The notes under the pieces: generated by a model
Database searches by the model: none
Told to the model about the DNA's origin: nothing
What the model saw: only the letters and a program-made list of their open reading frames with translations
Source of the DNA: a virus
Lineage: Duplodnaviria; Heunggongvirae; Uroviricota; Caudoviricetes
Virus record (IMG/VR): IMGVR_UViG_2877948078_000003
DNA: 64,000 nt
Strand: one strand, 5' to 3'
Translations under genes and position numbers: made by a program
Part shown: one piece after another, positions 1,197 to 52,700 of the stretch
Layout of the letters: every line of letters begins with the position of its first letter
Position numbering within the stretch: position 1 is the stretch's first letter

Positions 1197-1412
1197 TTAC
1201 TCTCCCCGTGCCGCCTTACGCCGGTCCTCTCTGATTTTGAAATACAGGTTCGTCAGGTACGTCAGCAGACCAAACAGCAGACTCCCCAGCACGCCTATTG
1301 CCGCCCACTGAGACGGGGAAACCCTGTCCAGCAACTGCAGGAACCAGTAGCCCGTTCCCACCGCTGACGTGGTGTATGACACACCTGTTGTGATTTTTTC
1401 CATCTGGTACAT
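1197..1412 (-). CDS. S: Pinholin / antiholin with dual start (phage 21 S21-like)
   Basis: 71 aa starting MYQMEK (Met1 and Met4 dual-start motif); two TM helices; C-terminus [20 protein letters not shown] as I recall for S21; RBS GGAG upstream. Confidence 0.85.
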
Positions 1413-2420: not shown

Positions 2421-2494
2421 ATCTCAACTTTTTAAAGCGTTTAAAACTTCATTAAATCTATATGGCAACTAACATACGGGCCAGCCTCGCCAAA

Positions 2495-3025: not shown

Positions 3026-3215
3026 AAAGATACCTCTTGGTGCTTTTCTAAGGAAAGGTTTCTTTCTATTTATCCAATTGAAAAATAAGGATAAAAGCAA
3101 AAAATAGCCAAAACACCAAAAATACCTTGATTTGGTATTTTTAGTGATGCATTATTTACCCGTGCAGATATCCGCACGAATATCCGCGCGGGTAACTTTT
3201 TAGAATAGAGGAAGT
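3026..3215. promoter_or_regulatory. Divergent repressor/early promoter and operator region (Mu O1-O3, Pe, Pc equivalent)
   Basis: AT-rich intergenic region between divergent repressor and ner genes; assigned by position only. Confidence 0.4.
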
Positions 3216-3464
3216 ATGAGTAGAAGAGAAGTTTCAGATCACGATTGGCCGCCTGAAATCATCAAGGCGCGCTTACACATGGCTGGCTTATCACTGCGCT
3301 CTTTATCTTTAAAGGCTGGTTACAGCAGGGATTCGCTGAAAAGCGTATTACGTACTCCTTGCCGACCGTATCAGCAAATAATTGCTGATGCTCTTGGGGT
3401 ATCGCCTGAAGAAATCTGGCCCAGTAGATACCAGGTTAAGAGCTATATGAGAAAGGCGTCATGA
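3216..3464 (+). CDS. ner: Ner-like DNA-binding protein (negative regulator of early transcription)
   Basis: 82 aa; motif GLSLRSLSLKAGYSRDSLKSVL...IIADALGVSPEEIWPSRY resembles Mu Ner; directly upstream of the transposase. Confidence 0.8.
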   Translation: MSRREVSDHDWPPEIIKARLHMAGLSLRSLSLKAGYSRDSLKSVLRTPCRPYQQIIADALGVSPEEIWPSRYQVKSYMRKAS

Positions 3465-3465
3465 T

Positions 3466-5556: not shown

Positions 5557-5627
5557 AATAAAAAAATAACCCGAGCGGCGACTCAGGTTATTTGATTAAA
5601 CAAGGTATCAAATGAGAGGTTAATAAT

Positions 5628-6560
5628 ATGACTGATATTAACGATGTAATCAAGACCATTGATGAACTTATTGATGGCGGCGTACTGACGCAGTATGCCA
5701 TCGCCAGAGAGGCGGGAATTTCCGACGGCACATTATCGGCTTTCCGTAAGGGAAAATATAAAGGCGATAACGCTGCTGTGGCTGCTTCCCTGCGCTCCTG
5801 GTATGAGAACTGGAATAAACAAAGCGCACTGCCGGAACCGCCGCAGTTTGTGGAAACGCAGACAGTCCAGGAGCTGCGCGCACTGTTTCAGGCGGTTCGT
5901 CTGATGGGCTGTATTAACGTTATTGTGGGCGTACCGGGTGTGGGTAAAACGGCCACCGCCCGTAATTACTGCCAGGAGCAACCAAACACCTGGATGATCA
6001 CCCTGTCTCCCGCGCATTCCAGCGTCACGGAGTGTCTGCTGGAGCTGGCCGATGCGCTGGGGATTGATTACACCCGCGCGAACAAAGGGGCATTATCCCG
6101 CGCCATCCGCCGTCGCCTGATGGGAACGCGCGGACTGGTGATTGTGGATGAGGCGGATCATCTTGGTATTGACGGTCTGGAGCAACTCCGGGCAATTCAG
6201 GACGCCACGGGGATCGGGATGGTGCTTATTGGTAACCCGCGCGGACTGTTTAAAGGTGGACGCCGCGCCTTTGATGATTTATCGCGCCTGTTCAGCCGTC
6301 TTGCCCGTACAAAACAACTTCGCAGGGCTAAAAAGGCGGATGTGCTGGCTATTGCCAGGGCATGGGGTATCAGTGGTGAGGCCGAGCTGGCTGTCATGCA
6401 GGCTATTGCTGAAAAACCGGGAGCATTACGTGTTCTGACACATACGCTTAACCAGGCGTGGCTCACAGCCAGCGGTGAAGGCGCGGCGCTGACAGAAAAA
6501 CATATTAATGCGGCCTTTAAAGAGGTTTACACCAACCCTGAATTACTCTCGCAGGTGTGA
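5628..6560 (+). CDS. B: Mu B-type ATPase (transposition target-DNA activator)
   Basis: 310 aa; N-terminal HTH; Walker A GVPGVGKT and Walker B VIVDEADHL; follows A. Confidence 0.85.
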   Translation: MTDINDVIKTIDELIDGGVLTQYAIAREAGISDGTLSAFRKGKYKGDNAAVAASLRSWYENWNKQSALPEPPQFVETQTVQELRALFQAVRLMGCINVIVGVPGVGKTATARNYCQEQPNTWMITLSPAHSSVTECLLELADALGIDYTRANKGALSRAIRRRLMGTRGLVIVDEADHLGIDGLEQLRAIQDATGIGMVLIGNPRGLFKGGRRAFDDLSRLFSRLARTKQLRRAKKADVLAIARAWGISGEAELAVMQAIAEKPGALRVLTHTLNQAWLTASGEGAALTEKHINAAFKEVYTNPELLSQV

Positions 6561-6784
6561 TTATGGCTGTATTTAATATTCCTGATATTTACGGACGCTT
6601 TTACCTGGTGAATTTCGATAACGTCAAAGCAGTCTCCATGTCTGACAGTGAAGAATGTGGCGATTTACTCTTTGAATTTAATGATCGCACCCGAATGGCA
6701 ATATCGGCAGGACTTGATCGTGAAGGTGCGAAAGAAGCTTACAGCAATATTTGTCGCTTTATCGGTGCAAGACGGGTTAGTTAA
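6557..6784 (+). CDS. Small early protein in the Mu kil position
   Basis: 75-aa ORF with GTG start overlapping the B stop (GTGA); named by position only. Confidence 0.45.
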   Translation: MIMAVFNIPDIYGRFYLVNFDNVKAVSMSDSEECGDLLFEFNDRTRMAISAGLDREGAKEAYSNICRFIGARRVS

Positions 6785-6796
6785 ACGAGAGGTTAT

Positions 6797-7216
6797 ATGA
6801 AAATGCAGATACAGCAGGAAATCAATGTTCTCCACAGCTTTCGAGAGTTTAACGTCGATGACGGGGAGGTTTGTGATTATATCTATGAATTGATGGACGG
6901 TGATGGTGTGTGTTTTCTGTATATAGACCTGTATCAGTGGTATGCAGACATGCAACTTGATTCCATCAGACGCCGTTTTAATCATGAATGCTTTGATGTG
7001 GATGTATGGGAAAGCCTGTGCTTTGGTTTTCTGATTATGGATGATTATCGCCAGGGGTGGCGACACGGTTACTCCATTCTTCGTGCAATCATGCGTGGCG
7101 AAACCCGAAAAATGCCGGGGATGGGTAAAGTTAATCGAGGCTTCCTGTCAGAGCTGGCTGCATTGCGCATGAATCCATTACTGATACAACCGGAGTTCAC
7201 TTATGAATTTGTTTGA
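6797..7216 (+). CDS. Hypothetical early protein (acidic, 139 aa)
   Basis: ORF with RBS GAGAGG upstream; early semi-essential region. Confidence 0.5.
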   Translation: MKMQIQQEINVLHSFREFNVDDGEVCDYIYELMDGDGVCFLYIDLYQWYADMQLDSIRRRFNHECFDVDVWESLCFGFLIMDDYRQGWRHGYSILRAIMRGETRKMPGMGKVNRGFLSELAALRMNPLLIQPEFTYEFV

Positions 7217-7433
7217 TTCACTGAATAACGCCCGTCGCCTGACCGAGCTTGCCGGTGCGGTACTGGAACGCAGTAAGCGCTATCCGCAACGCTTTGCACT
7301 GAAAACCACGCCGCCGGTAGGTGAGGTTCAGGGGAGTGGTGAGGAAATTGAAATCACCGTTAAGACCAACGGCCTGCGCCGCCGTGTGAAAGCCACCCGC
7401 ATAAGCGGATGCACGGTTTACTGGGAAGTATGA
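7203..7433 (+). CDS. Hypothetical early protein (76 aa)
   Basis: ORF overlapping the preceding stop; operon context. Confidence 0.4.
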   Translation: MNLFDSLNNARRLTELAGAVLERSKRYPQRFALKTTPPVGEVQGSGEEIEITVKTNGLRRRVKATRISGCTVYWEV

Positions 7434-7507
7434 AGTTGCTTCATGGTTCGGCTCTGTCATCAGGTCAGATGCCGGGTCAGTTATCCGAACAAAACGAGAG
7501 CCAGAGG

Positions 7508-7780
7508 ATGAGTAAAGTCGTACGCATTATTTTCGAATACAAGGAAGATGTTATCTGCAAAAACTCTGATGGCAGCACGCACAGAGGGGTAAGTCTGGAT
7601 ATACGTTCAACCGGAATAAAGAAGAAAGATAATGGACCCGCCATGATTTTTGGGGTGGTTATGCTGGCAGAAAGCAGAAACTTCGCAGAGCTTGTGGCAA
7701 TGAAAGCCAGTGCATTCATGAAAGACAGGGGTATGGCTTCCGGGGTTATTAACGGTAATGAATTTAATCAGCAGGGGTAA
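7508..7780 (+). CDS. Hypothetical early protein, tandem paralogue 1
   Basis: Starts MSKVVRIIFEYKED; the next gene starts MSKVRVIFEFEH, indicating a tandem duplication. Confidence 0.45.
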   Translation: MSKVVRIIFEYKEDVICKNSDGSTHRGVSLDIRSTGIKKKDNGPAMIFGVVMLAESRNFAELVAMKASAFMKDRGMASGVINGNEFNQQG

Positions 7781-7784
7781 TTCC

Positions 7785-8078
7785 ATGAGCAAAGTACGCG
7801 TTATTTTTGAATTTGAGCATGTTTCGCATGACGAAAAGCTGGCAGGCAATGACTGTGTTGAAGTGCATGAAAAGATTGGAGTGAATGTGAAAACAGAACG
7901 TGATACGGAGAACAGCCCGACGTCACTCTGTGATGTTTATGCAAGTATTCTCCAGTATCACAGTCCTGCAATTATTCAGCTTCTCTCAGCGGAATTTCAG
8001 GCATCTGTACAGGCTTTTGGGGCGGATGCCATCATTAAACGCCACCGTGTGCATAAAGCATCAGGCACGCTGCAATAA
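7785..8078 (+). CDS. Hypothetical early protein, tandem paralogue 2
   Basis: Starts MSKVRVIFEFEH; same operon and strand as paralogue 1. Confidence 0.45.
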   Translation: MSKVRVIFEFEHVSHDEKLAGNDCVEVHEKIGVNVKTERDTENSPTSLCDVYASILQYHSPAIIQLLSAEFQASVQAFGADAIIKRHRVHKASGTLQ

Positions 8079-8088
8079 GGAAAACAAA

Positions 8089-8619
8089 ATGGTTAAACGT
8101 GTTACAAAATTAAAGGCCGCAGCCGAGGCCGCACCACAGACCCGCGAAGAAGTCAGCCGCGATATCCGCACTCTGGGCGATATTCAGCGAGAGGCGCTGC
8201 GCCTGGAAACGGCAATGAATGATGAAGTGGCAGAAATCACCGCCCGTTATACGCCGCAGATTGAAAACCTTAAAAAAGAAATCAAAGTGCTTTTTAAAGG
8301 GATTCATGACTGGTGTAAAACCAACCGCAATGAGCTGACGAACGGCGGCGAAACCAAAACTGCCAATCTGACCACCGGAACGGTGTCATGGCGGCTGGGA
8401 AATCCATCATGCAGCGTCAGTCGTGATGTGGAAGGTGTGATTGAAATGCTGCGTCGTATGGGGCTTGAGCGCTTCATCCGCACGAAAGAGGAAGTGAATA
8501 AGCAAGCTGTCCTGGCGGAGCCGGATGCGGTGAAAGGGATTGCTGGTATTAAGGTGAATAAAGGCGCTGAAAGTTTTCATGTCGAGCCTTTTGAACAGGA
8601 CGCCGGACTGAATAAATAA
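8089..8619 (+). CDS. gam: Gam-like protein (Ku-like host-nuclease inhibitor / DNA-end binding)
   Basis: 176 aa; LGDIQREALRLETAMNDEVAEIT ... ELTNGGETKTANLTTGTVSWR ... RFIRTKEEVNK closely resembles Mu Gam as recalled. Confidence 0.8.
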   Translation: MVKRVTKLKAAAEAAPQTREEVSRDIRTLGDIQREALRLETAMNDEVAEITARYTPQIENLKKEIKVLFKGIHDWCKTNRNELTNGGETKTANLTTGTVSWRLGNPSCSVSRDVEGVIEMLRRMGLERFIRTKEEVNKQAVLAEPDAVKGIAGIKVNKGAESFHVEPFEQDAGLNK

Positions 8620-36173: not shown

Positions 36174-36734
36174 ATGCTGATTGGCTATATACGCGTATCA
36201 ACAAATGACCAGAACACAGGTTTACAAAGAAATGCGCTGGAATGTGCAGGATGTGAGCAGATTTTTGAAGATAAAATGAGCGGAAACACAACGCAGCGAC
36301 CGGGACTGAAGCGGGCACTGAAGAAACTAAAACCCGGTGACACACTGATGGTCTGGAAACTGGACAGGCTGGGGCGCAGTATGCGCCACCTTGTTGCGCT
36401 GACAGATGAATTACAGCAACAGGGGATAAATTTTCGTAGTCTTACTGACAACATTGATACGTCAACCCCCATGGGGCGCTTCTTTTTTCACATAATGGGT
36501 GCGCTGGCAGAAATGGAGCGTGAATTAATTGTCGAACGGACACGGGCTGGTCTTGCAGCTGCCCGTGAAAGGGGACGAACCGGCGGCAGACCCCGCCGTC
36601 TCACGCAGGAACAATACGAGCAGGTTGGGCGTTTACTGGCCGGGGGTGTCAGTCGAAGACAGGTGGCACTTATTTTTGATATCGGCCTTTCAACCCTTTA
36701 TCGTTATTATCCTGCGAGCGTTTCGGAAAAATAA
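36174..36734 (+). CDS. gin: Serine DNA invertase (Gin/Hin/Pin family)
   Basis: 186 aa; N-terminal MLIGYIRVSTNDQ catalytic-serine motif; C-terminal HTH; adjacent to gix-R. Confidence 0.9.
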   Translation: MLIGYIRVSTNDQNTGLQRNALECAGCEQIFEDKMSGNTTQRPGLKRALKKLKPGDTLMVWKLDRLGRSMRHLVALTDELQQQGINFRSLTDNIDTSTPMGRFFFHIMGALAEMERELIVERTRAGLAAARERGRTGGRPRRLTQEQYEQVGRLLAGGVSRRQVALIFDIGLSTLYRYYPASVSEK

Positions 36735-36833: not shown

Positions 36834-38876
36834 ATGACGTCCAAATGGGTTCAACTATCATCAATGCCCGGAAACTTTACCGTTAAAGTTTCCGGTGGTA
36901 CAGCGGCATTTCTTGAGGCTCCCTTTCCTCCGGCTGAAGCGAAAGGAGGAATGACATTTGCTGACTGTCTCATCAGTTTTAATACACGGGATTGCCTGTG
37001 GGTAAGACCAGTATCCGGTGATCCGAGTGTGGAAATTACCGGAGCGGGTATTGGTGCGGTCATTCCGTTAAGTGCTGATGTTGCCGGTACTGCTGAACCG
37101 TCAGACTGGGATAATGCTGAAACACATACCCGTCCGTCAGGAAATGAAACGGCTTCCAGCTCCCCTTCCTGGTATTACGTGGTGGTTCTTGCTGGTCAGT
37201 CAAACGGTATGGCTTACGGTGAAGGTCTGCCACTGCCGGAGACATATGACCGCCCCGAACCGCGTATTATGCAGTTAGCCCGTCGCAGTACAGTCACGCC
37301 GGGAGGTAAAGCCTGTCAGTATAACGACATCATTCTGGCCGACCACTGTCTGCATGATGTGCAGGATATGAGTGGAAAAAATCACCCGAAAGCGGATGTG
37401 GCTAAAGGGCAATATGGCACCGTGAGTCAGGGGCTTCACATTGCCAAAAAACTGCTGCCGTTTATTCCGGCAGATGCGGGGATTCTGCTGGTTCCCTGCT
37501 GTCGTGGCGGTTCTGCATTCACGGCGGGTGCTGACGGCACGTACAGTGACAGCACGGGTGCTTCAGAGGACTCAGCCCGCTGGGGTGTGGATAAGCCGCT
37601 GTATAAGGACTTAATCAGCCGGACAAAAGCGGCACTGGCGAAGAACCCGAAAAACCGCCTGCTTGCTGTGGTGTGGATGCAGGGCGAGTTTGATATTGAT
37701 GCGAAGCCGACGGAGCATTCTGCGCTGTTTCTGGCGATGGTGGAAAAATTCCGCACAGACCTGGCTGAAAAAGCGGAGCAGTGTATTGGTGGCCGGACTG
37801 AAACTGTGCCGTGGATTTGTGGCGATACCACGTATTTCTGGAAAAAGAAAAATGAACCGGCATATCAGGCAATCTATGGCGGCTACAAAAACAAAACAGA
37901 TAAAAACATTCATTTCGTCCCATTAATGACAGATGAAAATGGCGCGAATGTACCCACCAACAATCCGACAGAAGACCCGGATATTGAATCCATTGGTTAT
38001 TACGGCTCAACGTGGCGTAACAGTGCTGCCACCTGGACATCTGCGGACCGGGCCAGCCATTTCAGTGCCTGGGCGCGCCGGGGAATTATTTCCGACCGTC
38101 TGGCCACGGCTGTTCTGACTCACGCAGGGCGAACCACAGTAAAAGCCGATGTTCCATCTTCTGAAACTGATGCGCCAACGCCGTCACCTTCAGAAGCTGA
38201 AACAGTAACCACAACAACACTGCTGTCTTACCGTGCCAGTGAGTCTGAAGGGAAGCTGACCGAACAGGGCTGGAGTGCAGGTGGAGGTAAAGCGGAAATT
38301 GTTGCCGATGAAGGTGCAACAGGTGGTACCGCGATGAAGCTGAGCAAGGAGACAGGAGTGGGGTCATGGTATCTGGAGCATGATGCCGGCACTGGCGCTG
38401 AACTGCTGAAAAATGGCGGTTTAATCAGCTGCCGCTTTAAGGCATCCGGTGAACTGGTAGCAAATCAGTATGTCATTGCTCTTTACTGGCCGGTTTCCTC
38501 TCTGCCGCAGGGTGTCACCCTGACAGGGGATGCAGGGAATAATCTGCTGGCAGCGTTTTACATCCAGACAGATGCAAAAGACCTGAATGTGATGTACCAC
38601 AATGCGAAGGTGGCGACAAACAACCTGAAACTGGGAAGCTTTGGCGCATTTGATAACGAATGGCATACGCTGGCCTTCCGCTTTGCCGGGAATAACAGCC
38701 TTCAGGTGACGCCGGTTATTGATGGTCAGGATGGCACACCGTTCACGCTGACGCAGTCACCGGTCAGTGCCTTTGCGACGGATAAACTGCATGTGACAGA
38801 CATTACCAAAAATGCGACTTACCCCGTGCTGATTGACAGCATTGTGGTGGAAGTGAAAAAAGCGGTAACAGAATAA
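36834..38876 (+). CDS. nanS-p: NanS-p-type sialate O-acetylesterase (SGNH/DUF303 esterase with C-terminal lectin-like domain), cargo inside the Mu-like prophage
   Basis: 680 aa; central block VVVLAGQSNGMAYGEG ... VVWMQGEFD typical of the NanS family; ~75-85% identical over most of its length to the split host-prophage copy but with a different N-terminal ~130 aa. Confidence 0.8.
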   Translation: MTSKWVQLSSMPGNFTVKVSGGTAAFLEAPFPPAEAKGGMTFADCLISFNTRDCLWVRPVSGDPSVEITGAGIGAVIPLSADVAGTAEPSDWDNAETHTRPSGNETASSSPSWYYVVVLAGQSNGMAYGEGLPLPETYDRPEPRIMQLARRSTVTPGGKACQYNDIILADHCLHDVQDMSGKNHPKADVAKGQYGTVSQGLHIAKKLLPFIPADAGILLVPCCRGGSAFTAGADGTYSDSTGASEDSARWGVDKPLYKDLISRTKAALAKNPKNRLLAVVWMQGEFDIDAKPTEHSALFLAMVEKFRTDLAEKAEQCIGGRTETVPWICGDTTYFWKKKNEPAYQAIYGGYKNKTDKNIHFVPLMTDENGANVPTNNPTEDPDIESIGYYGSTWRNSAATWTSADRASHFSAWARRGIISDRLATAVLTHAGRTTVKADVPSSETDAPTPSPSEAETVTTTTLLSYRASESEGKLTEQGWSAGGGKAEIVADEGATGGTAMKLSKETGVGSWYLEHDAGTGAELLKNGGLISCRFKASGELVANQYVIALYWPVSSLPQGVTLTGDAGNNLLAAFYIQTDAKDLNVMYHNAKVATNNLKLGSFGAFDNEWHTLAFRFAGNNSLQVTPVIDGQDGTPFTLTQSPVSAFATDKLHVTDITKNATYPVLIDSIVVEVKKAVTE

Positions 38877-40105: not shown

Positions 40106-40306
40106 ATGTATCGAAACATACGGTGCCGACACTGCAATAAGCTACTGGCACGGGCCAGTTTCAGTTATCTGGAAGTAAAATGTCCGCGCTGTAAAACCCT
40201 CAATCAAATCACATCTCCGAGCGCCACAGAGCACCCCACATACACAAGGAAATCCTGTCGTGGGGAACAGAAAGCAAGTCACATCCCGAATCATCAGCAC
40301 GCCTGA
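40106..40306 (+). CDS. com: Com-like zinc-finger translational activator of mom
   Basis: [31 protein letters not shown] (CxxC ... CxxC) resembles Mu Com; RBS AGGAGG upstream; overlaps the mom start. Confidence 0.7.
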
Positions 40307-40997
40307 ACTTATTCGCTATAACGACAATATCGTTGGTTATGGCTCCCGTGAGTTGCGGGTTGAGACAATAAGTTGCTGGCTGGCCAGACTGGTCATCGTC
40401 AATAAACATTACAGCCACCGTTTCGTAAATAACTCCTACCTTCATCTGGGCATATTTTCAGAACGGGAACTTGTTGGCGTAATGCAATGGGGTTACGCCC
40501 TTAACCCAAACAGTGGTGCACACGTCGTAACGGGTACGCAGAACCGAGAATATATGGAGCTTAACCGGCTATGGCTGCATGACTGTATGCCGAGAAACTC
40601 CGAATCAAGGGCAATCAGTTACGCGCTCAAGCTAATCAGACAGCTTTATCCGCAGGTACAGTGGGTTCAGTCGTTTGCAGATGAGCGTTGTGGCTGTCTT
40701 GGTGTCGTGTATCAGGCAAGCAATTTTGATTATGTAGGCAGCCATGAATCAACATTCTATGAACTTGATGGCGAGTGGTATCACGAGATTTGCAGGAATG
40801 CCATTAAACGAGGCGGACAACGAGGTGAACATCTGAGGGCTAATATCGACAGAGCCAGTGTTCATAAGTTCCGACAGTTTCGTTACATCCGGTTTCTGAA
40901 CAAGAGGGCCAGAAAACGCCTCAACACAAAGCTATTCAAAGTCCAGCCTTACCCAAAACCACAAACTGTTAAAACCGGTTTGAAAGAGATTGGGTGA
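40260..40997 (+). CDS. mom: Mom-like DNA modification protein (anti-restriction adenine modification)
   Basis: 245 aa starting at GTG inside the com 3' end as in Mu; last gene before the right end. Confidence 0.7.
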
Positions 40998-41124: not shown

Positions 41125-41129
41125 ACTCC
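41125..41129. repeat. Right copy of the 5-bp target-site duplication ACTCC
   Basis: Identical to 2240-2244. Confidence 0.6.
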
Positions 41130-42858: not shown

Positions 42859-42859
42859 A

Positions 42860-43890
42860 CATGTAAAAAGGCTCCTGCGATGAGGAGCCTGGATGTATGC
42901 CTAATCTCTGTATACTGCATGGTGCCGGGTGCCTCCCGGTGAACAAATGTCCGTGATATCAGTCGGCCACACAGGAAATGATACGATATCACCCCTCCGC
43001 ACAGGGGGATTCACCATGCCCGTTTTTTTTAACAAACTCCTCATCAATCAGACAATCATCAACCTCATGAATTGTGAGGAATTTAACATTTCACAACACA
43101 GCCTTTTCCCTGCATAAAAAAGCCCCTCCGGAGAGGGGCTTCGCTACGTGTCTGTTAACCATATGCATGATGCCGGGTGCCTCCCGGTGAGTTCAGTATC
43201 AGCACCTGAACCCGCACAGAAAGGATAGAGTAGAAACACCTGCGCTGATATGCCCCTCCGCTCAGGGGGATTCACCATGCAGAACTTTTTTAACAACTCC
43301 CCGTAAGACAGGCAAGCATCAACCATCTGAACTGTGAGGAATTTAACATTTCACAACACAGCGTTTTTCCTGCATAAAAAAGCCCCTCAGGAGAGGGGCT
43401 GACACTGCGTATCTGTATCATCATGAACATGGTGCCGGGTGCCTCCCGGTGAGTCCAGTCTGGTGTCCCTGAACCCGCGTTTGCATTGCCTACAACAGAA
43501 AAGATGCAAATCACACCAGTCGCCCCTCCGCACAGGGGGATTCACCATGCAGAACTTTTTTAACAACTCCCCCTCAGACAGGCAAGCATCAACCATCTGA
43601 ACTGTGAGGAATTTAACACTTAACAACACAGCCTTTTCCCGCACAAAAAAAGCCCCTCCGGAGAGGGGCCGATCGCTATGTATACACCATAAGCAGCATA
43701 GTGCCGGGTGCCTCCCGGTAGATTCAGCCTGACTACTGAATCTGCGTATTGTGACCATCGCTATGGAGACCATGTCAGACGCCCCTCCGCACAGGGGGAT
43801 TCACTATGCTGGCTCGTTTTTACAAGACTTCCATCGATCAGACAATAGCCCATCAACCGAATTGTGAGTCATTTAACATTTCCATGAGGT
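42860..43890. repeat. Tandem array of four ~250-270-bp non-coding direct repeats with conserved hairpins and a variable core
   Basis: Each unit carries GGTGCCGGGTGCCTCCCGGTGA, CCCCTCCGCACAGGGGGATTCACCATGC, a variable ~40-bp segment, TGTGAGGAATTTAACATTTCACAACACAG and terminator-like AAAAAGCCCCTCCGGAGAGGGGCT; no ORF conserved between units. Confidence 0.7.
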
Positions 43891-44495: not shown

Positions 44496-45221
44496 TCAGA
44501 TAACGTCTGCTTTCTGCAAATATGCATAGCTCTCAGGTGGTGCACCATAATACTGGTGAAATACAGAAATGAAGTAGGACTTACTTGAGTAACCACATTT
44601 TTCCGCTATCGCTTGTCCACACTCTCGCTGGAAACATACAAGATTAACAGCAACACGCATTCGCTCCTCCAGCAACAACCGACTAAAGCTATAACCTTCA
44701 TCCTTAAGTTTTCGCTTCAACAAGCTTTCGCTCATATGCAATTGTAATGCAATCACACCAAGCATCCAGCCTGCCGATATGTCGGTCTGAATTATAGCCC
44801 TTACTTTACAGCTGATATTATTTACAGCACCGGACAAAAATAATGGCAGACGTCTGTCTGTTGCAAATAAGGAGATACATGAAAATGCGGTTATAACAGA
44901 GAAATCCTTCAAAGTATCACTGGATTCACTATGCTGGGTTATTAAAGCCTCCGCCAGTTCCGTATTGTAAATATCAGACATCAAATAAAGAGGCATTTTT
45001 GTCGGTGTATACTCCGTCATTTCACACTCCCTTTCCAGATACTGATTGACGACGCTGTTACTTATATCTGCCATTTTCACTCTGTCGGCATAAGCACAGA
45101 AAAGCCCTCTTATATTTCTGGCAACAAGCATAACACTTCCGGCATCGAGTGAAACTTTTTCTTTTTCAAGAAAAATATCTATCGGATAGCGAATCAGGAC
45201 CACAGAGCAGGCAACATCCAT
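44496..45221 (-). CDS. AraC/XylS-family transcriptional regulator (prophage-encoded, PatE/GadX-like class)
   Basis: 241 aa; C-terminal double HTH of the AraC family (KCGYSSKSYFISVFHQYYGAPPESY); AT-rich. Confidence 0.8.
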   Translation of the reverse strand: MDVACSVVLIRYPIDIFLEKEKVSLDAGSVMLVARNIRGLFCAYADRVKMADISNSVVNQYLERECEMTEYTPTKMPLYLMSDIYNTELAEALITQHSESSDTLKDFSVITAFSCISLFATDRRLPLFLSGAVNNISCKVRAIIQTDISAGWMLGVIALQLHMSESLLKRKLKDEGYSFSRLLLEERMRVAVNLVCFQRECGQAIAEKCGYSSKSYFISVFHQYYGAPPESYAYLQKADVI

Positions 45222-45304
45222 TTTGAATTAACCTGAGCAAAAAGACTTAATACCAGTATATTCCAAAAATGGCATTTTGGGAGATTACTTCTGCAAACCG
45301 CTCC

Positions 45305-45448
45305 CGCTAAATACATCCCTGATTTCCTGCGCAGTCTGTTCAAAACGCCCGGTATCCAGCTCAACGCCAGTTGCACGACGCCCCAGCGCCATCGCTGCTT
45401 TAACTGCCGAACCCTACCCCATGAAGAAATCTGCAACCAGGACACCCG
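45305..45448 (-). pseudogene. 3' remnant of a second N6-adenine methyltransferase gene
   Basis: ~140 bp near-identical to the 3' end of the methyltransferase gene at 46829-46990; homology breaks sharply at 45448/45449 where the promoter-terminator module begins. Confidence 0.55.
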
Positions 45449-45454
45449 GCAGAA

Positions 45455-45590
45455 GGGAGACTACAGCCCGCAATTCGAAAAAGGCCACGCTATTGCGCAG
45501 AGTGATTACTGTCGGGTATTATTCGCCAGTTGAAGTATTACTTCACGTTTTATTGTTTATTCCTTGCCGCCCGCGTCTCCCAGCGCGGGC
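45455..45590 (+). ncRNA. Candidate small RNA / conserved promoter-terminator module (copy 2)
   Basis: Same TTGCGC / TATTAT signals and terminator hairpin GCCCGCGTCTCCCAGCGCGGGC + T7 as copy 1. Confidence 0.3.
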
Positions 45591-45596
45591 TTTTTT

Positions 45597-45860
45597 TGTC
45601 CATAAGAAAGCCCCTCCGGAGAGGGGCTGAAGCCGCATTTCTGTATCACCATGAGCATGGTGCCGGGTGCCTCCCGGTGAGTTCAGCCCGGTGACACCAA
45701 ACCCGCGTATTCTCGCTTACGATCATCAAAGAGATCATACCGTTCACCAGTCGCCCCTCCGCACAGGGGGATTCACCATGCGAAATTTTTTTAACAAATG
45801 CTCAGTCTGACAGGCAACTGTCAACTTACTGAATTGTGAGGGATTTAACACTTCACAGAA
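45597..45860. repeat. Solo fifth copy of the ~260-bp repeat unit
   Basis: Contains all conserved blocks of the array units with its own variable core. Confidence 0.65.
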
Positions 45861-45916
45861 CAATATCTTTCCAGCGCCCCAAAATCATCAGGACAGGAGA
45901 AAATCTTCTCCCCCTG

Positions 45917-46345
45917 TCAGAGTTTAAAATCCAGCACGCCATTTCTAAATGCTTTATATACTCCTGAAGACGGTGGTGATGGTATATCAGCATTCTTTAC
46001 TGCATTCATCGCTTCACGACATAAATCGGGATCACCGCTTTCTCTTTTAACCTGTAGCAGAAGACCATTCGGGGCCATATACATTCTCAGTGAACACTCT
46101 TTTCCTGAATACTTACTCGCATCCTTTAACTGTTCTTCTATGGCTTTCCTGACCTGAATGGCATACTGCCGGATTTCTTCACTGGCATCAGGGGTACGTT
46201 CCGATGAGCTCAAATTTTGCGACTTTATTAATTTATCTGAGTGATACAGAGAAGCATCATGATTATTTGTCGATACATCTTTTGTGCAGCCAGTTGTCAG
46301 ACTGGCTAATATCAAAACAAGAACAGGTACAGCACGGCAATACAT
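45917..46345 (-). CDS. Lipoprotein of unknown function
   Basis: 142 aa; signal peptide with lipobox LTTGC. Confidence 0.6.
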   Translation of the reverse strand: MYCRAVPVLVLILASLTTGCTKDVSTNNHDASLYHSDKLIKSQNLSSSERTPDASEEIRQYAIQVRKAIEEQLKDASKYSGKECSLRMYMAPNGLLLQVKRESGDPDLCREAMNAVKNADIPSPPSSGVYKAFRNGVLDFKL

Positions 46346-46623: not shown

Positions 46624-46700
46624 TGGACCGCCATCGAGGACTCGAACCCCGCGCAGCCAGCTTCGAAGGCTGGCGCTCTATCCCGATGAGCTAATGGCGG
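46624..46700 (-). tRNA. tRNA-Arg (anticodon UCG)
   Basis: Cloverleaf folded by hand: acceptor CCGCCAT/ATGGCGG, D stem GCTC/GAGC, anticodon stem CCAGC/GCTGG with loop CTTCGAA, T loop TTCGAGT, encoded CCA. Confidence 0.85.
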
Positions 46701-46709
46701 TATGTGATA

Positions 46710-46785
46710 TGGTGGCCCTTGCTGGATTTGAACCAGCGACCTGGCGATTATGAGTCGCTCGCTCTCACCACTGAGCTAAAGGGCC
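46710..46785 (-). tRNA. tRNA-Ile2 (anticodon CAU, ileX/ileZ-like); tRNA-Met not excluded
   Basis: GGCCCTTTAGCTCAGTGGTGAGAGC...CTCATAA...GGTTCAAATCC...GGGCCACCA closely resembles E. coli ileX as recalled; anticodon loop CTCATAA. Confidence 0.85.
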
Positions 46786-46825: not shown

Positions 46826-47884
46826 TCATCCATTCTGACTGACTAAATCCTGTACTTCCCTGACCGTCTGCTCAAAACGTTCAGTCTCCAGCTCAACGCC
46901 AGTTGCACGACGCCCCAGCGCCATCGCGGCTTTGACTGTCGAACCCGACCCCATGAAGAAATCTGCAACCAGGTCCCCCGGACGACTGCTCGCGCTGATT
47001 ATCTGCTGCAGCATTTCTGCCGGTTTTTCGCACGGATGTTTCCCGGGATAGTACTGCACCGGTTTATGCGTCCACACATCCGTGTACGGCACCTGCGCCG
47101 TCACGCCAAAATACCGCCGCAGATGCTTATATTCACTCTGCAGTTCCGCATACTGCCGGTTCAGTGAAGTATACGTCTCCAGCAGCTGGTGGTGGGGCTT
47201 TTCCAGTTCACCGCGCTGATGCTTCTCTTCTGCCACCCGGGCAAACAGCGCCTGTAATTTCAGATAATCACTTTCGTTCGGTAGCTGCCACTGACTGGCA
47301 CTGAACCAGTGCGACACCATGTTTTTCTTTCCTGTGGCATCCACTATCTGTTTTGCCGTTATCCCCAGGGCAGCACGCGCATCACGAAAGTAAGCAATCA
47401 GCGGAGCCATCACATGCTGTTTCAGTGCCCTGCCCTTCGCCTCATACCCGGCATCTTTCGGACGATACGGCCCCTGATAATGTTCCGCGAACAGAATGCG
47501 CTCTGTGGCGGGGAAATACGCCCTCAGGCTTTCCTTGTTGCACCCGTTCCAGCGTCCGGACGGCTTCGCCCAGATAATATGGTTCAGCACACTGAAGCGT
47601 TCACGCATCATGATTTCGATATCAGATGCCAGGCGATGGCCACAGAACAGGTAAAGACTTCCGGCAGGTTTCAGCACCCGCCAGAACTGCGCCAGACACT
47701 GGTCCAGCCATTTCAGGTAATCCTCATCACCCGTCCACTGGTTATCCCAGCCCTCAGGCTTCACTTTAAAGTACGGCGGGTCCGTGACTATCAGGTCAAC
47801 AGAATTTTCGGGTAACGACCGGATAAATTCCAGGCAGTCGGCGTTGATTAACTCACAACTGGATATTTTTACAGTATTAAACAT
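46826..47884 (-). CDS. DNA N6-adenine (or N4-cytosine) methyltransferase, orphan
   Basis: 352 aa; DPPY motif (IVTDPPYF) near the N-terminus and FxGxG (FFMGSGST) near the C-terminus; no adjacent restriction endonuclease. Confidence 0.85.
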   Translation of the reverse strand: MFNTVKISSCELINADCLEFIRSLPENSVDLIVTDPPYFKVKPEGWDNQWTGDEDYLKWLDQCLAQFWRVLKPAGSLYLFCGHRLASDIEIMMRERFSVLNHIIWAKPSGRWNGCNKESLRAYFPATERILFAEHYQGPYRPKDAGYEAKGRALKQHVMAPLIAYFRDARAALGITAKQIVDATGKKNMVSHWFSASQWQLPNESDYLKLQALFARVAEEKHQRGELEKPHHQLLETYTSLNRQYAELQSEYKHLRRYFGVTAQVPYTDVWTHKPVQYYPGKHPCEKPAEMLQQIISASSRPGDLVADFFMGSGSTVKAAMALGRRATGVELETERFEQTVREVQDLVSQNG

Positions 47885-48035
47885 GGATCATTAAGCCTGT
47901 CTCTGATAAGCTCATACCGCTTTTGCGCAAAGCAGATGGGCCTGAGGTTTGCTTGTGACCCCAACGCATGAGCAGATGGCTGGTGAGTGCCCCTAACACC
48001 CACCAGCCGCCCATTTACCACAAATAAAAAAGCCT

Positions 48036-48233
48036 TCAGGACTGAAGGCGTCTGTAACAACCAAACTGATAGTCTGCCAGACCCGCCATAACAAGCTGGG
48101 TCAGTATTAGCTGGCAGCGTTCGCGTGAAAGGTACGTATTCTGTGCAATCTCCCCGACTGTCGCCGGTTCGGTGGCACTTAATTCATTAAAAACTGCTCT
48201 GGCGGTTTCTGTCATATCCTGCTGTTTCAGCAT
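48036..48233 (-). CDS. Small HTH/winged-helix-like protein
   Basis: ~65 aa from the internal Met (ORF extends to 48269); TVGEIAQNTYLSRERCQLILTQLVMAGL resembles a DNA-binding helix pair. Confidence 0.4.
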   Translation of the reverse strand: MLKQQDMTETARAVFNELSATEPATVGEIAQNTYLSRERCQLILTQLVMAGLADYQFGCYRRLQS

Positions 48234-48406
48234 GTCTTTTTCCCTTTTCCGGTTAACGTGACACACCAATAACTCTTGTCAAAAAAGCCAGCAAGCTGAA
48301 AGACCGGTATTAATAACCACCTGCACATTTTATGTACTGCACCATTTTTCTGGCATAAAAAAACCGCTCAATGCCGGGCAGTAAAATCTTTATTACTCAG
48401 GAAATT

Positions 48407-49120
48407 TTAACGTACTCTGACAGTATTAATTTCAAAATCATTAATATTTCCGCTATTAAATATAACGAATTTCTTACCCCCACTCCTGTATGATTTCGAT
48501 AACACCAGACGATCATCATAGCGCGCAATAATGTAATACCATACATTCTCATAGTGGACCGCCTGATATTCCCTCTTAAACTGTGGTTTGTACCAACCGG
48601 CAATAAGAGAGAATGCCCAGAAATAAATCATAAACCCAGCCATCATGAACTCAATTCGGTGATGGCGAATAATAGACATTTCCGAAAAACATTTGACTGA
48701 AACAAGTCTTCTTCCAGACCTGACAAAAAGCGTGATTGCAAAGGCAGCAAGAACGCAGAAAATCAGTACATCTGGCTCAACATGCTGATGAATTACAGAA
48801 AACTCCAGAACAGGTGGAATAAAAAGCAGCAATATCGCGAGAAAAAGCCGGATAAAACTCAAATTTTGTATATTGCGCTTTTGTTTTATGCCCAAAAAGA
48901 AAACAATACCAACTCCCCATCCAATAAGGAATATAACAATAACTGTCACAGCATAAAACAAACTTCGTGCTACATCATCGACACCAGCCCCGACAACCCA
49001 CCATGGAAAGCCATAGTAAAATGAAGTACCCCACCCATAGAAATAAGCGCTCCCCCATCCGAGACAGCCCATATAAGCAACAAAAAGTGAAGAGTTTCTG
49101 AGCAGAGCACTGTCATCCAT
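48407..49120 (-). CDS. Multi-pass integral membrane protein, AT-rich cargo gene directly downstream of Q
   Basis: 237 aa; ~5 predicted TM helices in the N-terminal 160 aa plus a soluble C-terminal ~70 aa; local GC far below the prophage average. Confidence 0.6.
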   Translation of the reverse strand: MDDSALLRNSSLFVAYMGCLGWGSAYFYGWGTSFYYGFPWWVVGAGVDDVARSLFYAVTVIVIFLIGWGVGIVFFLGIKQKRNIQNLSFIRLFLAILLLFIPPVLEFSVIHQHVEPDVLIFCVLAAFAITLFVRSGRRLVSVKCFSEMSIIRHHRIEFMMAGFMIYFWAFSLIAGWYKPQFKREYQAVHYENVWYYIIARYDDRLVLSKSYRSGGKKFVIFNSGNINDFEINTVRVR

Positions 49121-49372
49121 AGTAACACCATTAACAACTCAAAAATATCAACACACATTACATAACAAATTGGATTCCATGCAGTCAAGGGGCGTCATTG
49201 ATGGAGAAAGTATTGGCACAATCGTCATCACGTTTAATGTCTATGCCATTTTTTGGGGGGTAAAAACCCGCTCGGTCACGGGTTTTAGTGGCTTTGCCAT
49301 CACGTATAATAACGGCAAAATATCAGATTTACACGAAATATATGCCTTTTTATCTACTTTTGCAATACTTTG
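49121..49372 (-). promoter_or_regulatory. Putative Q-dependent late promoter region (pR'/tR'-like)
   Basis: Intergenic region immediately downstream of the Q-like gene with hairpin AAAACCCGTGACCGAGCGGGTTTTT on the transcribed strand; by analogy with lambdoid pR'-qut-tR'. Confidence 0.35.
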
Positions 49373-50044
49373 CTATGAAAATGCCGCCTTTTGTTTTGAA
49401 CGTGTTCCCTCCACCAACAATAAAGCTTCACTATCCAGCCGATGAAAAATGTGTTTCATTGCAACCCAGTGACCAGTAAATGTCTTGGACCAGTTTTTGG
49501 TTGTTACTCCCACCAGTAACGCCAGTTCCTGGTATTCGTAACCTTCCCCACCAAAAAGCTCAGCTTTTACCGCCTGCGCCGCCAACCAGATCAACGTCTT
49601 CAGGCGCACCAGAGTTTTTCCTGCAATTTTTCTGGTACCGGATTGAGCATTAAATTCAGTCCACGCCCACTGCGTTATCGCGATCTGATGCTCCCAGCAA
49701 ATGCTACCGCTGTAACACCACAGCAGCCAGGCTTTATGATGTTCTTCAAGAGACAGAACGGCGCGTCGCCATGATGATGTCGAAAACTCAACCGGACTGA
49801 CCAGGGCAATTGATGAGCCTTTCGCCAGTGATTGTTTACCCGGGATCGGGGGATTATCCCGCGTGATCATTTTTCCGGTTACCTCATCGCGGTAACGAAT
49901 TTTTTTGCGTCTGTAACGCCCTGTATCGAACAGGGCATTTTCCTGCCAGACTTCCAGCTGGCCTTTTGTCGACCCACTAAGATCCGCAGTGGCAATCATG
50001 AGTTGCTCACGAACAAACTGTAAATACTGGTTATTCATGCACAC
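49373..50044 (-). CDS. Putative antitermination protein Q (long Q family)
   Basis: 223 aa located directly after rusA as in DLP12/Qin-type prophages; assignment rests mainly on position. Confidence 0.55.
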   Translation of the reverse strand: MCMNNQYLQFVREQLMIATADLSGSTKGQLEVWQENALFDTGRYRRKKIRYRDEVTGKMITRDNPPIPGKQSLAKGSSIALVSPVEFSTSSWRRAVLSLEEHHKAWLLWCYSGSICWEHQIAITQWAWTEFNAQSGTRKIAGKTLVRLKTLIWLAAQAVKAELFGGEGYEYQELALLVGVTTKNWSKTFTGHWVAMKHIFHRLDSEALLLVEGTRSKQKAAFS

Positions 50045-50393
50045 CCACCTCTGTAATTCTTATCTCCAGCCGTCCACCAGATACTGGCTTGCCACGTACA
50101 ATATTGATTTCATCAAACTGCTCATCGTCCATTAACAACCCCGCGTGCGTCAGCGCATCCAGCGGTGCTTTCAGAATATTGTCCAGGTCACGGCGGCGCT
50201 TATCCGGTGGCTCTGCAATAATTTTTATTGCCAGCCGTCCGGACAGGCTTAATTTCAGTCGCTGCTGGCGAACAATAAGCGCCACTGCCCGGCGATAACG
50301 CTCCCCGGCTTTTGATACAAAATATGTGCTGCCACGGCGTCGCCAGTAAGTGTTCACCGTCGGCGGGTAAGGTAAAACCAAATCTATGAGCAT
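50031..50393 (-). CDS. rusA: RusA Holliday-junction resolvase
   Basis: 120 aa; YPPTVNTYWRRRG ... RRDLDNILKAPLDALTHAG matches the RusA family. Confidence 0.85.
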   Translation of the reverse strand: MLIDLVLPYPPTVNTYWRRRGSTYFVSKAGERYRRAVALIVRQQRLKLSLSGRLAIKIIAEPPDKRRRDLDNILKAPLDALTHAGLLMDDEQFDEINIVRGKPVSGGRLEIRITEVGVHE

Positions 50394-50405: not shown

Positions 50406-51455
50406 TTACCCGAGCACGCCAGTCGCAAAGGCGTGATCAAGAAAACGAAAAATTAACTCAATCTGAGAGCCGTACTTTTTCTCAAACTTCAGCGGGTCTG
50501 CATGAAGTTCGTTGTGGTGCTCCCGGCACAACGGTAGCGTGAAAATATCGTGGGCCTTTGTTCCCACTCCCCCCTGACCATGACCAATCAGGTGATGCGG
50601 ATCGTCAGCTGGCTTACCACAACACGCACACGGCTGTGTCTTTACCCAGCGCGTGTATTTCTCATTAACCCAACGGCGACGTTTAGGCCGCCTCATGAAC
50701 GATTCAGGAGACTCCGGATCAACGGCGATACTGACAACCGTTTTTTTCTGTGGTGGATTTTGTTGCTGGTGGACGTGAAGTGGCAGCGCAATATTTTTTG
50801 TGCGCTGCTTCAGTATGCTGATGGCTGTCTGTTCTCCCGGTACGATGTCACTCTCACGGTATACGGAGCGGATTTTTTCCGCTGGTAATCCCAGCGAACG
50901 ACGCGCTACTGCCTCAGGTAGTGCATCCACCACCTGATTGCAGGCCGCCCACCAGGATAATTCGGCCAGCGATAACTCCCTCTCCTGCGTACCGCTTATT
51001 GCGTGACGGATGACATCAATCATCCAGGCAACCAGATTCTGCTGAGCAAGTTGATCGAGTGATTCTGATGTCTGGTCGCGCAGCTGGTTGTCACAGTGCC
51101 AGCACAACACCATCGCGCCGGTACCATAACGGTGAATGACTGTTTCGCTGTGATGATAATCGCCGTGTGGCCACTGGCAGGATTTCACGTGACGTAATAA
51201 CCAGTCAGACAGTGCACCTGCACCACCTGCTGCACGAATAACCCGCTCATCGCTGAAAAATGGCAGTAATGTTTTATCCTCTGCCAGCGGCTGGCGAACG
51301 GCAGGAACGACTCCGGACGGCAGACCGCGCATGTTTTTCGGTTCCGGCTTCACCAATATTCTGCCGTTATGGAATACTGACATTGATTCACGGCCTGGCT
51401 TAACGATAACCAGACCGAGTTCCGGTACCAGAACAGGTCGAAGTAATACCCGCAC
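50406..51455 (-). CDS. DUF968 / YdfU-like prophage protein
   Basis: 349 aa; C-terminal Cys/His-rich motif CACCGKPADDPHHLIGHGQGG ... CREHHNELH; position between hok and rusA as in Qin. Confidence 0.65.
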   Translation of the reverse strand: MRVLLRPVLVPELGLVIVKPGRESMSVFHNGRILVKPEPKNMRGLPSGVVPAVRQPLAEDKTLLPFFSDERVIRAAGGAGALSDWLLRHVKSCQWPHGDYHHSETVIHRYGTGAMVLCWHCDNQLRDQTSESLDQLAQQNLVAWMIDVIRHAISGTQERELSLAELSWWAACNQVVDALPEAVARRSLGLPAEKIRSVYRESDIVPGEQTAISILKQRTKNIALPLHVHQQQNPPQKKTVVSIAVDPESPESFMRRPKRRRWVNEKYTRWVKTQPCACCGKPADDPHHLIGHGQGGVGTKAHDIFTLPLCREHHNELHADPLKFEKKYGSQIELIFRFLDHAFATGVLG

Positions 51456-51995: not shown

Positions 51996-52248
51996 CTCCC
52001 CTTATGGGGGCCATCCCTCTTATCCCTGCGCGCTACTTAAGAGCCTCGATTCTAGCCGTGAAGACATGCCAATCAACAGCAATAAACCACCTGAATAACA
52101 GAATCAGCCAGCCACATCGGTACAACCAGATGCATCACGCTCACCGAAAATAAACAACAAAAAACCGCCGAAGCGAGTTAAGTGGGGTGCGTTGAGGATG
52201 CCTGACACATCAGAGGTGGCGAGGGATTTCTCCCTCGCCTGGTCACTC

Positions 52249-52404
52249 TTACTTCTCAGATTCGTAGTCTACGAAGACAGCAACCTCCGTCTGGCCGGTT
52301 CGGATTCGTACCTCGCAGAGGTCTTTCCTCGTTACCAGTGCCGTCACTATGACGGTTAAACAGATGACGATCAGGGCGATTAACATCGCCTTTTGCTGCT
52401 TCAT
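52249..52404 (-). CDS. hok: Hok/Gef-family type I toxin
   Basis: 51 aa MKQQKAMLIALIVICLTVIVTALVTRKDLCEVRIRTGQTEVAVFVDYESEK, near-identical to Hok/Gef toxins as recalled; the frame is also open upstream (70 codons in total). Confidence 0.85.
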   Translation of the reverse strand: MKQQKAMLIALIVICLTVIVTALVTRKDLCEVRIRTGQTEVAVFVDYESEK

Positions 52405-52700
52405 AGCCTGCTTCTCCTTGCCTTTCGGCACGTAAGAGGCTAACCTACGTTTGTGAAGCATAGATTGGGCCTCAGATTAATGTTAAGTGTCCTGCAAGAC
52501 GCGTAATGTTAACTGGGGCTTTTCTCTGTCTGCCTTACGGCGGCATGCCCGAGGCAAACAGCCTCAAGCACCCGCAGCAATTCTACTTAACTCTCCTTTT
52601 CCCGCAAACCGTTTTTATCCCCAGCGGCAAATCGAATACACCACCAGCGCCACCGCCAGTGCGATTCCTACCGTTGTGAATGCTTCAGACCAGGTCATCG
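52405..52700 (-). promoter_or_regulatory. hok mRNA leader region, expected to carry the mok-overlap and sok-like antisense RNA
   Basis: Inferred from the conserved organisation of hok/sok loci; GC-rich structured leader upstream of hok. Confidence 0.35.

Follow-up and report, generated by a model that had tools for sequence, protein, structure and literature searches.

The 64,000-nucleotide stretch of viral DNA analyzed here (IMG/VR record IMGVR_UViG_2877948078_000003, Caudoviricetes; hereafter the window) carries, directly behind the gene of a Q antiterminator, a gene for a 237-amino-acid protein that is a functional member of the TfpB/STM1630 family. Its product, TfpB, is a polytopic inner-membrane protein with five transmembrane (TM) helices and a beta domain of about 55 residues, and the gene (tfpB) forms a self-contained accessory cassette that is bounded on one side by a terminator of the tR' type and on the other by the leader of the late gene that follows it. 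The family is already catalogued yet uncharacterized, and the gene is thus a member of a known, annotated family. What is new here is its recurrence in the position of first late gene, as a cassette that follows Q genes of several families and neighbors those of Shiga toxin (stx) and heat-labile enterotoxin (LT), together with the paralogous-leader structure of the insertion and the finding that an adjoining winged-helix cassette is separable from tfpB. As for its function, we tentatively propose, with somewhat less than an even chance of being right, that TfpB is an autonomous accessory inner-membrane cassette, a factor of lysogenic conversion and host fitness that acts on a conserved component of the envelope.

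The initial annotation had considered the protein an orphan of no recognizable family, a view overturned by the profile search that it had itself suggested. TfpB matches phrog_1521 of the PHROGs collection over residues 17-237 (E 2e-85; category unknown function), and the protein is designated here by the Pfam family PF27470 "TfpB", which is carried by cluster representatives 95-97% identical to the window protein and by every homologue in a large protein collection. As PF27470 is newer than the Pfam-A copy that was scanned, membership rests on these near-identical representatives and not on a direct model score; that copy, NCBIfam and the PADLOC library gave zero matches. In the NCBI annotation pipeline (PGAP), 'STM1630 family protein' is the label of an allele 88.8% identical at the DNA level. 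Homologue alignments and an AlphaFold model further display the architecture of the family, namely a length of about 240 residues, an N-terminal aromatic/Gly helix, several TM segments and a C-terminal beta domain with the pattern xYYxLxxY..xIL. In a profile search of 1.8 billion representatives only 76 TfpB clusters were retrieved, from Enterobacteriaceae, Neisseriaceae, Pasteurellaceae and Moraxella (Moraxellaceae). Within Escherichia coli, about a fifth of the complete genomes (approximately 1197 of 5426) contain tfpB-related sequence; the 1.5-kb region was matched at full length in 179 of the 2202 genomes with any partial match, and a scan of genome contigs recovered five tfpB loci. A literature search on accession numbers, PF27470 and phrog_1521 returned nothing, and most publications retrieved with the name 'TfpB' concern other things (chemistry, anaesthesia and a PilB-like ATPase).

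The open reading frame (ORF) at 48407-49120 was confirmed, as were the roughly five TM helices and the soluble tail first described for it. Hydropathy analysis gives four strong TM segments and an uncharged aromatic/Gly-rich stretch at residues 9-47. AlphaFold reached a predicted local distance difference test (pLDDT) value of 61 with 30 close homologues; the model used here was built with 52 diverse homologues, distant ones included, and has a pLDDT of 79 and a predicted template modelling (pTM) score of 0.74. It places helices at residues 10-36, 47-78, 89-111, 116-138 and 155-181, followed by a five-strand beta domain at 184-235. Positive charges cluster in the loops 79-91 and 134-155, so that the positive-inside rule puts the N-terminus in the cytoplasm. 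On this model the TM1-TM2 loop, the loop at 112-115 and the C-terminal domain would be periplasmic, and the first of these belongs to an invariant TM1-loop-TM2 motif, GWGSAYFYGWG..GFPWW..DDxARSLF. Structure searches with Foldseek, likewise suggested at the outset, disclosed no significant fold match for TfpB. The closest entries compared were mechanosensitive channels of the MscS type (YnaI, MscS and MSL10), at non-significant scores, and a test for MscS-family membership found neither a match to the Pfam MS_channel domain nor a significant fold match.

The ratio of nonsynonymous to synonymous substitution rates (dN/dS) of tfpB is 0.13-0.26 in comparisons with 13 alleles and 0.04-0.09 over residues 1-78; being well below 1, it indicates a real gene under purifying selection. 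This evidence bears on the idea that tfpB, in this strain, has no present function and is a passenger in decay. Many truncated family members are present in databases, and a 38.9-kb Mu-like insertion divides the lambdoid prophage, cutting the tfpB region off from the lysis genes; both would accord with decay. The ORF is nevertheless intact and at least 99.7% identical across many independent genomes of E. coli that produces Shiga toxin (STEC), and with dN/dS in the range just given we regard decay as extremely improbable.

The position of tfpB was also described correctly at first, behind Q and a putative Q-dependent promoter and ahead of a methyltransferase gene; Q belongs to PF06323, and the promoter is sigma-70-like. 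In the gap between Q and tfpB, a TTGCAA/TATATT pair and a hairpin are interpreted as putative pR' and tR' elements (Table 1). The pR'-like promoter is kept in phage 434 and in IMG/VR locus L056, and the hairpin lies some 50 nt past the promoter; the annotations of phage 434 and SfV list its homologue as a terminator. As a general rule, pR' is constitutively active and its transcript is terminated nearby in lysogens (PMC7547250). With pR' and tR' so assigned, tfpB, lying 3' of the terminator, would be the first gene of the Q-dependent late operon. The earlier placement in a moron slot stands as far as a cargo gene is meant; it would not, however, simply be a moron expressed in the lysogen, since its position 3' of tR' would also make it the first gene of the late operon. 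The promoter and hairpin together (49262-49365, minus strand) should give rise constitutively to a short transcript of some 70 nt, a formal counterpart of the StxS small RNA of Stx phages (PMC7547250); an Rfam scan of this short transcript matched no family.

A second element in the gap, the conserved leader 41 nt 5' of the tfpB start codon, was found at 81 of 91 tfpB loci. Over 31 distinct upstream sequences TTGAC and TTTGTTATG are invariant and the spacer and flanks vary. The element accompanies tfpB behind different Q families and also on a Q-less plasmid of enterotoxigenic E. coli (ETEC), and its resemblance to a -35 box with an extended weak -10 (TGT-TATGTA) makes a promoter belonging to the gene itself plausible.

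That tfpB is a cassette in its own right can be seen from phages without it. In SfV, phiP27 and L056, which share the flanks of the window, an intact terminator and a second leader stand directly after Q or another gene and are followed by the small ORF, with no tfpB cassette at the same junction. In the window, the same pair of elements is found 3' of tfpB as a decayed copy of the tR' hairpin and a leader paralogous to that of tfpB. The gene is thus bracketed by intact and decayed copies of the tR'/leader unit, an arrangement that fits insertion via recombination within the shared leader. Judged as a moron, tfpB is present in some and absent from other homologous phages (SfV, phiP27, L056 and 434B) and has an atypical base composition, its GC content of 0.398 (0.37 at third codon positions) comparing with 0.487 in Q, 0.491 in the small gene downstream, 0.536 in the methyltransferase gene and 0.513 over the whole window. 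Both results mark tfpB as optional and compositionally foreign cargo and uphold the original description of a cargo gene more AT-rich than its neighbors (GC 0.49-0.54). A terminator of its own was not found at its 3' end: the hairpin after the tfpB stop was rejected for this role, as it folds like shuffled sequence (z -0.07).

The surroundings of tfpB vary in other respects. Among 80 IMG/VR contigs, 66 have, within 600 bp 5' of tfpB, a Q gene from one of at least three families (PF06323-type, 47; lambda-Q-like PF03589, 14; SfV-like, 5). The 3' neighbor on the same 80 contigs is the winged-helix gene in 40 cases, DUF3927/TciB in nine and a holin gene in eight; stx2A follows once (L057), as does the gene of an LT-II-like A chain (L077). 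In L046 the order is Q-tfpB-winged-helix gene-AraC-like gene-stx2AB, so that toxin genes do occur just 3' of tfpB in L057, L046 and L077, in agreement with the initial annotation, which named stx among the cargo of this position. On the ETEC plasmid NZ_CP122717 (L017, locus 2482-5209) a tfpB homologue lies 867 bp 5' of eltAB (LT-I), in divergent orientation and amid insertion sequence elements. In L083 the homologue is situated 3' of genes 53-54% identical to reference stx2e genes.

Could TfpB then be an accessory of the lytic cycle, in which the first late protein would tune the triggering of the holin, the time of lysis or how toxin or virions are released? The gene is always co-oriented with the late operon and directly follows tR', and a class II holin is the next gene in L016, L060-L064, L067, L079 and L082. 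However, homologues also occur in non-phage chromosomes and on a plasmid, without lysis genes nearby, and the phages already encode a complete set of holin, endolysin and spanin. In phage 434B the whole Q-to-lysis region, including a tfpB homologue, was replaced by DLP12 DNA and plaques still form (PMC9119081), from which it follows that tfpB is dispensable for lytic growth. Identification as a holin or antiholin itself was rejected, given that those proteins have fewer than about 150 residues, one to four TM segments and a charged C-terminus and that the sole holin is encoded just 5' of the endolysin, whereas TfpB has 237 residues and five TM helices with a beta domain, and a separate class II holin is encoded beside the lysozyme. 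A lytic role is, in our estimate, quite improbable.

Outside phages, lone tfpB homologues lie amid housekeeping genes in Avibacterium and Neisseria, and the Salmonella copy (STM1630) is syntenic across subspecies enterica, arizonae and diarizonae. That the protein acts singly and that hosts keep it even where no phage is present speaks for a cell-autonomous function in the envelope and against participation in lysis. STM1630 has its own promoter, is expressed in medium inducing Salmonella pathogenicity island 2 (SPI-2) and in macrophages, and is bound by H-NS (PMC6785131); attenuation of its mutants has been reported from screens in calves and chicks (PMC6785131), and its promoter is lost in invasive ST313, with the gene absent from S. 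Typhi (PMC6785131). On a motility phenotype seen in a screen, the follow-up study remarks that some of the screen effects may have been indirect (PMC4534456). It is the colonization and macrophage phenotypes of STM1630 that suggest a role of TfpB in lysogenic conversion and host fitness. Under this proposal, tfpB would on induction be transcribed first in the Q-antiterminated late operon, and in the lysogen it might also be transcribed weakly, from the promoter-like element that travels with it. The protein would be dispensable for phage growth and would act alone. Its invariant TM1-loop-TM2 motif and its beta domain, both predicted to face the periplasm, would most likely bind or modify some conserved component of the host on the periplasmic side of the inner membrane. 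Exclusion of superinfecting phages by a block of entry at the inner membrane is a candidate variant of this proposal.

The hypothesis put forward in the initial annotation, superinfection exclusion or abortive infection, would in detail mean that TfpB is expressed in the lysogen from its own promoter and blocks the DNA entry of incoming phages at the inner membrane or collapses the membrane on infection. An inner-membrane protein encoded by a single AT-rich gene of patchy distribution in the cargo slot of a prophage, dispensable for growth (PMC9119081) and accompanied by a promoter-like element, is consistent with such a role, as are the nature of the best, albeit non-significant, Foldseek matches (MscS-type channels) and the location of a Klebsiella subfamily member at the cargo end of a prophage. 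On the other hand, none of the 5027 PADLOC models (PADLOC-DB 2.0) matched TfpB (E <= 0.1), nor did any match the Klebsiella protein, and the lone homologues lie among housekeeping genes, outside defence islands. The Salmonella copy is kept in synteny over subspecies and shows virulence-type regulation, and a role in the envelope that benefits the host would account at least equally well for the stable lone chromosomal orthologues of Salmonella, Neisseria and Avibacterium. Selection on tfpB is uniformly purifying and leaves no hypervariable surface. The reverse transcriptase encoded beside the Klebsiella copy, moreover, is likely that of a group II intron. Exclusion is accordingly a possible, if rather doubtful, explanation, and TfpB is probably neither a lysis protein nor a member of a known defence system.

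The Klebsiella proteins (L102-L104, around locus 5274-8517) form a divergent TfpB subfamily of about 17-24% identity. They are encoded in a conserved block, SRAP(YedK)-TfpB-umuC-umuD, that adjoins a DNA invertase gene and a SASA-type tail fibre gene, and in L102 the reverse transcriptase gene adjoins umuD. As a defence-island marker this gene was rejected, its best matches being generic reverse transcriptase models, with further matches to homing-endonuclease models.

Several points weigh against the proposed role in lysogenic conversion. The E. coli and phage proteins are described here from sequence and a structure model, and no structural relative hints at a chemistry. The topology is a matter of charge counting, and a C-terminal domain with a net charge of +5 is unusual if periplasmic. 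The -10 of the leader element is poor (TATGTA/TATGAG, with no T at position -7), and, the leader of the winged-helix gene being paralogous, its conservation may serve a shared late leader instead. STM1630 shares no more than 47% identity with the window protein, and its phenotypes come from screens; moreover, its deletion in strain 4/74 raised replication in macrophages (PMC6785131).

The small helix-turn-helix-like ORF that the initial annotation had listed behind tfpB is indeed present. Its matches to winged-helix models all remain below threshold (TrmB, HTH_24 and MarR_2; E 1e-3 to 1e-2), RefSeq labels the phiP27 copy a TrmB-family regulator, and the RefSeq start is the ATG at 48233 (65 aa) and not the TTG at 48269 (77 aa). 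The gene occurs in 55 phage records, including phiP27 (L23), SfV (orf47) and many Stx2a phages without tfpB, and in records lacking tfpB it usually stands just 5' of the same methyltransferase gene; it is also found without the methyltransferase (L046, L026 and L065). The terminator at its end is kept in other phages. Judging from these occurrences, the winged-helix gene is an independent cassette and is not to be read as a partner of TfpB. A role as control protein of a restriction-modification system was rejected, as its matches are to winged-helix and not Xre models, no nuclease gene is adjacent and the gene occurs without the methyltransferase.

The locus reads, 5' to 3' and entirely on the minus strand, DUF968, RusA, Q, a 252-bp gap, tfpB, the small ORF, the methyltransferase gene and tRNA genes, and its features are collected in Table 1. 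The Q protein shares 77% identity with its Q82-like counterpart in phage 434, and no nuclease that could partner the methyltransferase is encoded in the vicinity of the latter. Many STEC chromosomes contain an identical arrangement at 99.7-99.9% identity. Because these copies run on into genes for a SASA (NanS-p-like) esterase, a class II holin, lysozyme and spanin, the locus is recognized as the Q-to-lysis interval of a stx-less, Stx-phage-like lambdoid prophage.

Table 1. Features of the tfpB locus and its surroundings, with positions in the window
Feature	Position	Strand	Evidence or remark
DUF968 gene	50406-51455	minus	
RusA gene	50031-50393	minus	
Q antiterminator gene, phage-82 type	49373-50044 (RefSeq: 49373-50038)	minus	PF06323, E 1.3e-90
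pR'-like late promoter, TTGCAA-17 nt-TATATT, just 3' of Q stop	49337-49365	minus	consensus scan 9/12
tR'-like intrinsic terminator, hairpin AAAACCCG..CGGGTTTTT + T-run	49262-49286	minus	-16.1 kcal/mol, z -2.0
Conserved tfpB leader element, TTGACT-N14-TTTGTTATG	49161-49188	minus	putative own promoter
tfpB/STM1630-family gene, 237 aa, inner-membrane	48407-49120	minus	
Decayed second copy of tR' hairpin, 3' of tfpB stop	48357-48381	minus	aligns with intact terminators of SfV, P27 and L056
Winged-helix gene leader, TTGACA...TGTCACGTTAACC	48251-48282	minus	paralogous to tfpB leader; alignments
Winged-helix protein gene, 65 aa	48036-48233	minus	phrog_331, E 1e-37
Intrinsic terminator overlapping winged-helix gene end, GCCTTCAG-TC-CTGAAGGC then T6	48026-48049	minus	-10.5 kcal/mol, z -2.45
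N6/N4 DNA methyltransferase gene	46826-47884	minus	PF01555, E 7e-44; PADLOC MTase_II, E 6e-163
Two phage tRNA genes (CAT anticodon, Met/Ile2; Arg-TCG)	46624-46785	minus	
Lipoprotein gene with TolA C-terminal domain	45917-46345	minus	PF06519, E 6e-23
Duplicated 3' end of methyltransferase gene	45297-45449 vs 46829-46981		90.5% nucleotide identity; RefSeq pseudogene fragment
AraC-family regulator gene	44496-45221	minus	
STnc100 small RNA family, five late-region copies (four tandem, one further upstream)	42859-43838 and 45598-45810	minus	RF02076, 119-172 bits
Hok-like ORF, nin region	52249-52461	minus	hok/sok-type pair
sok RNA, nin region	52399-52573	minus	RF01794, 116 bits
isrK-like match	52159-52238		weak, sub-threshold
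Mu-like transposable prophage, 38,880 bp	2245-41124		
5-bp duplication ACTCC on either side of Mu-like prophage	2240-2244 and 41125-41129		
MuA-like transposase gene	3466-5556		Mu-like prophage
MuB-like gene	5628-6560		Mu-like prophage
Gin-like invertase gene	36174-36734		Mu-like prophage
SASA/DUF6645 fibre-like gene	36834-38876		Mu-like prophage
Mom gene	40260-40997		Mu-like prophage
Holin gene	1200-1412		lambdoid prophage
Lysozyme gene	662-1192		lambdoid prophage

The slot that carries stx in related phages is filled here by the TolA-C lipoprotein and AraC regulator genes (44496-46345), and an AraC-like gene 58% identical to that of the window is found directly 5' of stx2AB in L046. Between the duplicated ends of the methyltransferase gene lie both tRNA genes and the gene of the TolA-C-like lipoprotein, and this bracketing suggests a recombination joint of two methyltransferase-linked cassettes. 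Copies of the STnc100 small RNA family in the late region and a hok/sok-type pair in the nin region of the prophage were also observed. Within the lambdoid prophage, the gene of the NanS-p-like SASA esterase is interrupted by the Mu-like transposable prophage, which parts the Q/pR' and tfpB locus from the holin and lysozyme genes and in this strain thus probably leaves the late operon of the lambdoid prophage crippled; the prophage of strain 2013C-3181, otherwise 99.9% identical, is without this insertion.

For the window itself the result is modest: a known, annotated family is now placed in a clear structural context, and nothing in it is surprising in kind. The wider interest lies in the position that the family holds, the most virulence-relevant cargo position of lambdoid prophages, directly after Q and on the transcript that bears Shiga toxin or LT-II genes in relatives. 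Solving the function of TfpB would account for a gene that very commonly accompanies those of toxins, would clarify the reported colonization phenotypes of STM1630 and might reveal a new mechanism of exclusion or envelope remodelling.

With the lambdoid morons and exclusion genes bor, lom, sieB, rexB, cor and HK97 gp15, tfpB has in common that all are optional, compositionally atypical single genes for envelope proteins of temperate phages. No sequence or fold relationship of TfpB to these was found, and tfpB differs from classical morons in lying inside the late operon 3' of tR', a promoter of its own being putative and the hairpin at its 3' end folding no better than shuffled sequence.

The source of the PF27470 name, TfpB of Moraxella bovis/lacunata, is 28% identical over 233 residues (BLASTP E 8e-24) and shares with the window protein both the aromatic/Gly motif near the N-terminus and the beta domain at the C-terminus; it differs in that its gene lies not in a prophage but in the pilin inversion region, with type IV pilin genes on both sides. 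The name "protein tfpB" is an annotation of the Joint Genome Institute (JGI), and to our knowledge a function of the Moraxella gene has never been shown. This relative raises the idea that the family acts on pilin-like proteins and that phage copies modulate type IV pili or type II secretion. The location of the Moraxella namesake speaks for it, as do the confinement of the family to Moraxellaceae, Neisseriaceae, Pasteurellaceae and Enterobacteriaceae and the adjacency of tfpB to LT genes. The product of the latter is secreted via the type II system. The proximity to toxin genes is, however, attributable to the use of the same Q-to-lysis slot by both, and the Moraxella copy alone is linked to pilin genes; those of Neisseria and Avibacterium are not. 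The pilin accessory proteins TfpY and FimB, encoded beside the major pilin gene, have three N-terminal TM helices and a periplasmic mixed beta-sheet domain of a different fold (PMC11841053). A pilin accessory of their kind was rejected for TfpB, which is set apart by this published architecture, has five TM helices and is encoded in a window without a pilin gene. We give the pilin explanation very little credence. A broader formulation sees TfpB-family proteins as a hitherto unrecognized single-gene system that, on the periplasmic side of the inner membrane, would block a step of phage DNA entry there or act on pilin-like substrates, would be spread by lambdoid prophages as a default first late gene beside stx and LT, and would have been domesticated by several mucosal pathogens (Salmonella, Neisseria, Pasteurellaceae and Moraxella); this we consider unlikely.

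STM1630 of Salmonella Typhimurium is 47% identical to the window protein over its full length and equal to it in length and architecture. It is similarly AT-rich, bound by H-NS and horizontally acquired, and lies beside virulence cargo between steB and sseJ (PMC6785131). It differs in being fixed in the chromosome and in having an unrelated sequence upstream, where Q, the terminator and the conserved leader element are all absent and a promoter of its own is induced under SPI-2 conditions and in macrophages; a comparison of this promoter region with the phage leader found no homology.

The closest relative in an isolated phage is CPT_434_68 of phage 434, a 'putative membrane protein' with 56% identity. 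Its gene likewise follows directly after a Q82-type gene, promoter and terminator, and is preceded by a leader element identical in kind. The two loci differ downstream, where in phage 434 DUF3927/TciB, a 62-aa membrane protein and a SASA esterase follow in place of the winged-helix and methyltransferase genes. A gene of the CPT_434_68 type is also found in an O157:H7 prophage, in company with LpxR-YlcG-Q82-like genes.

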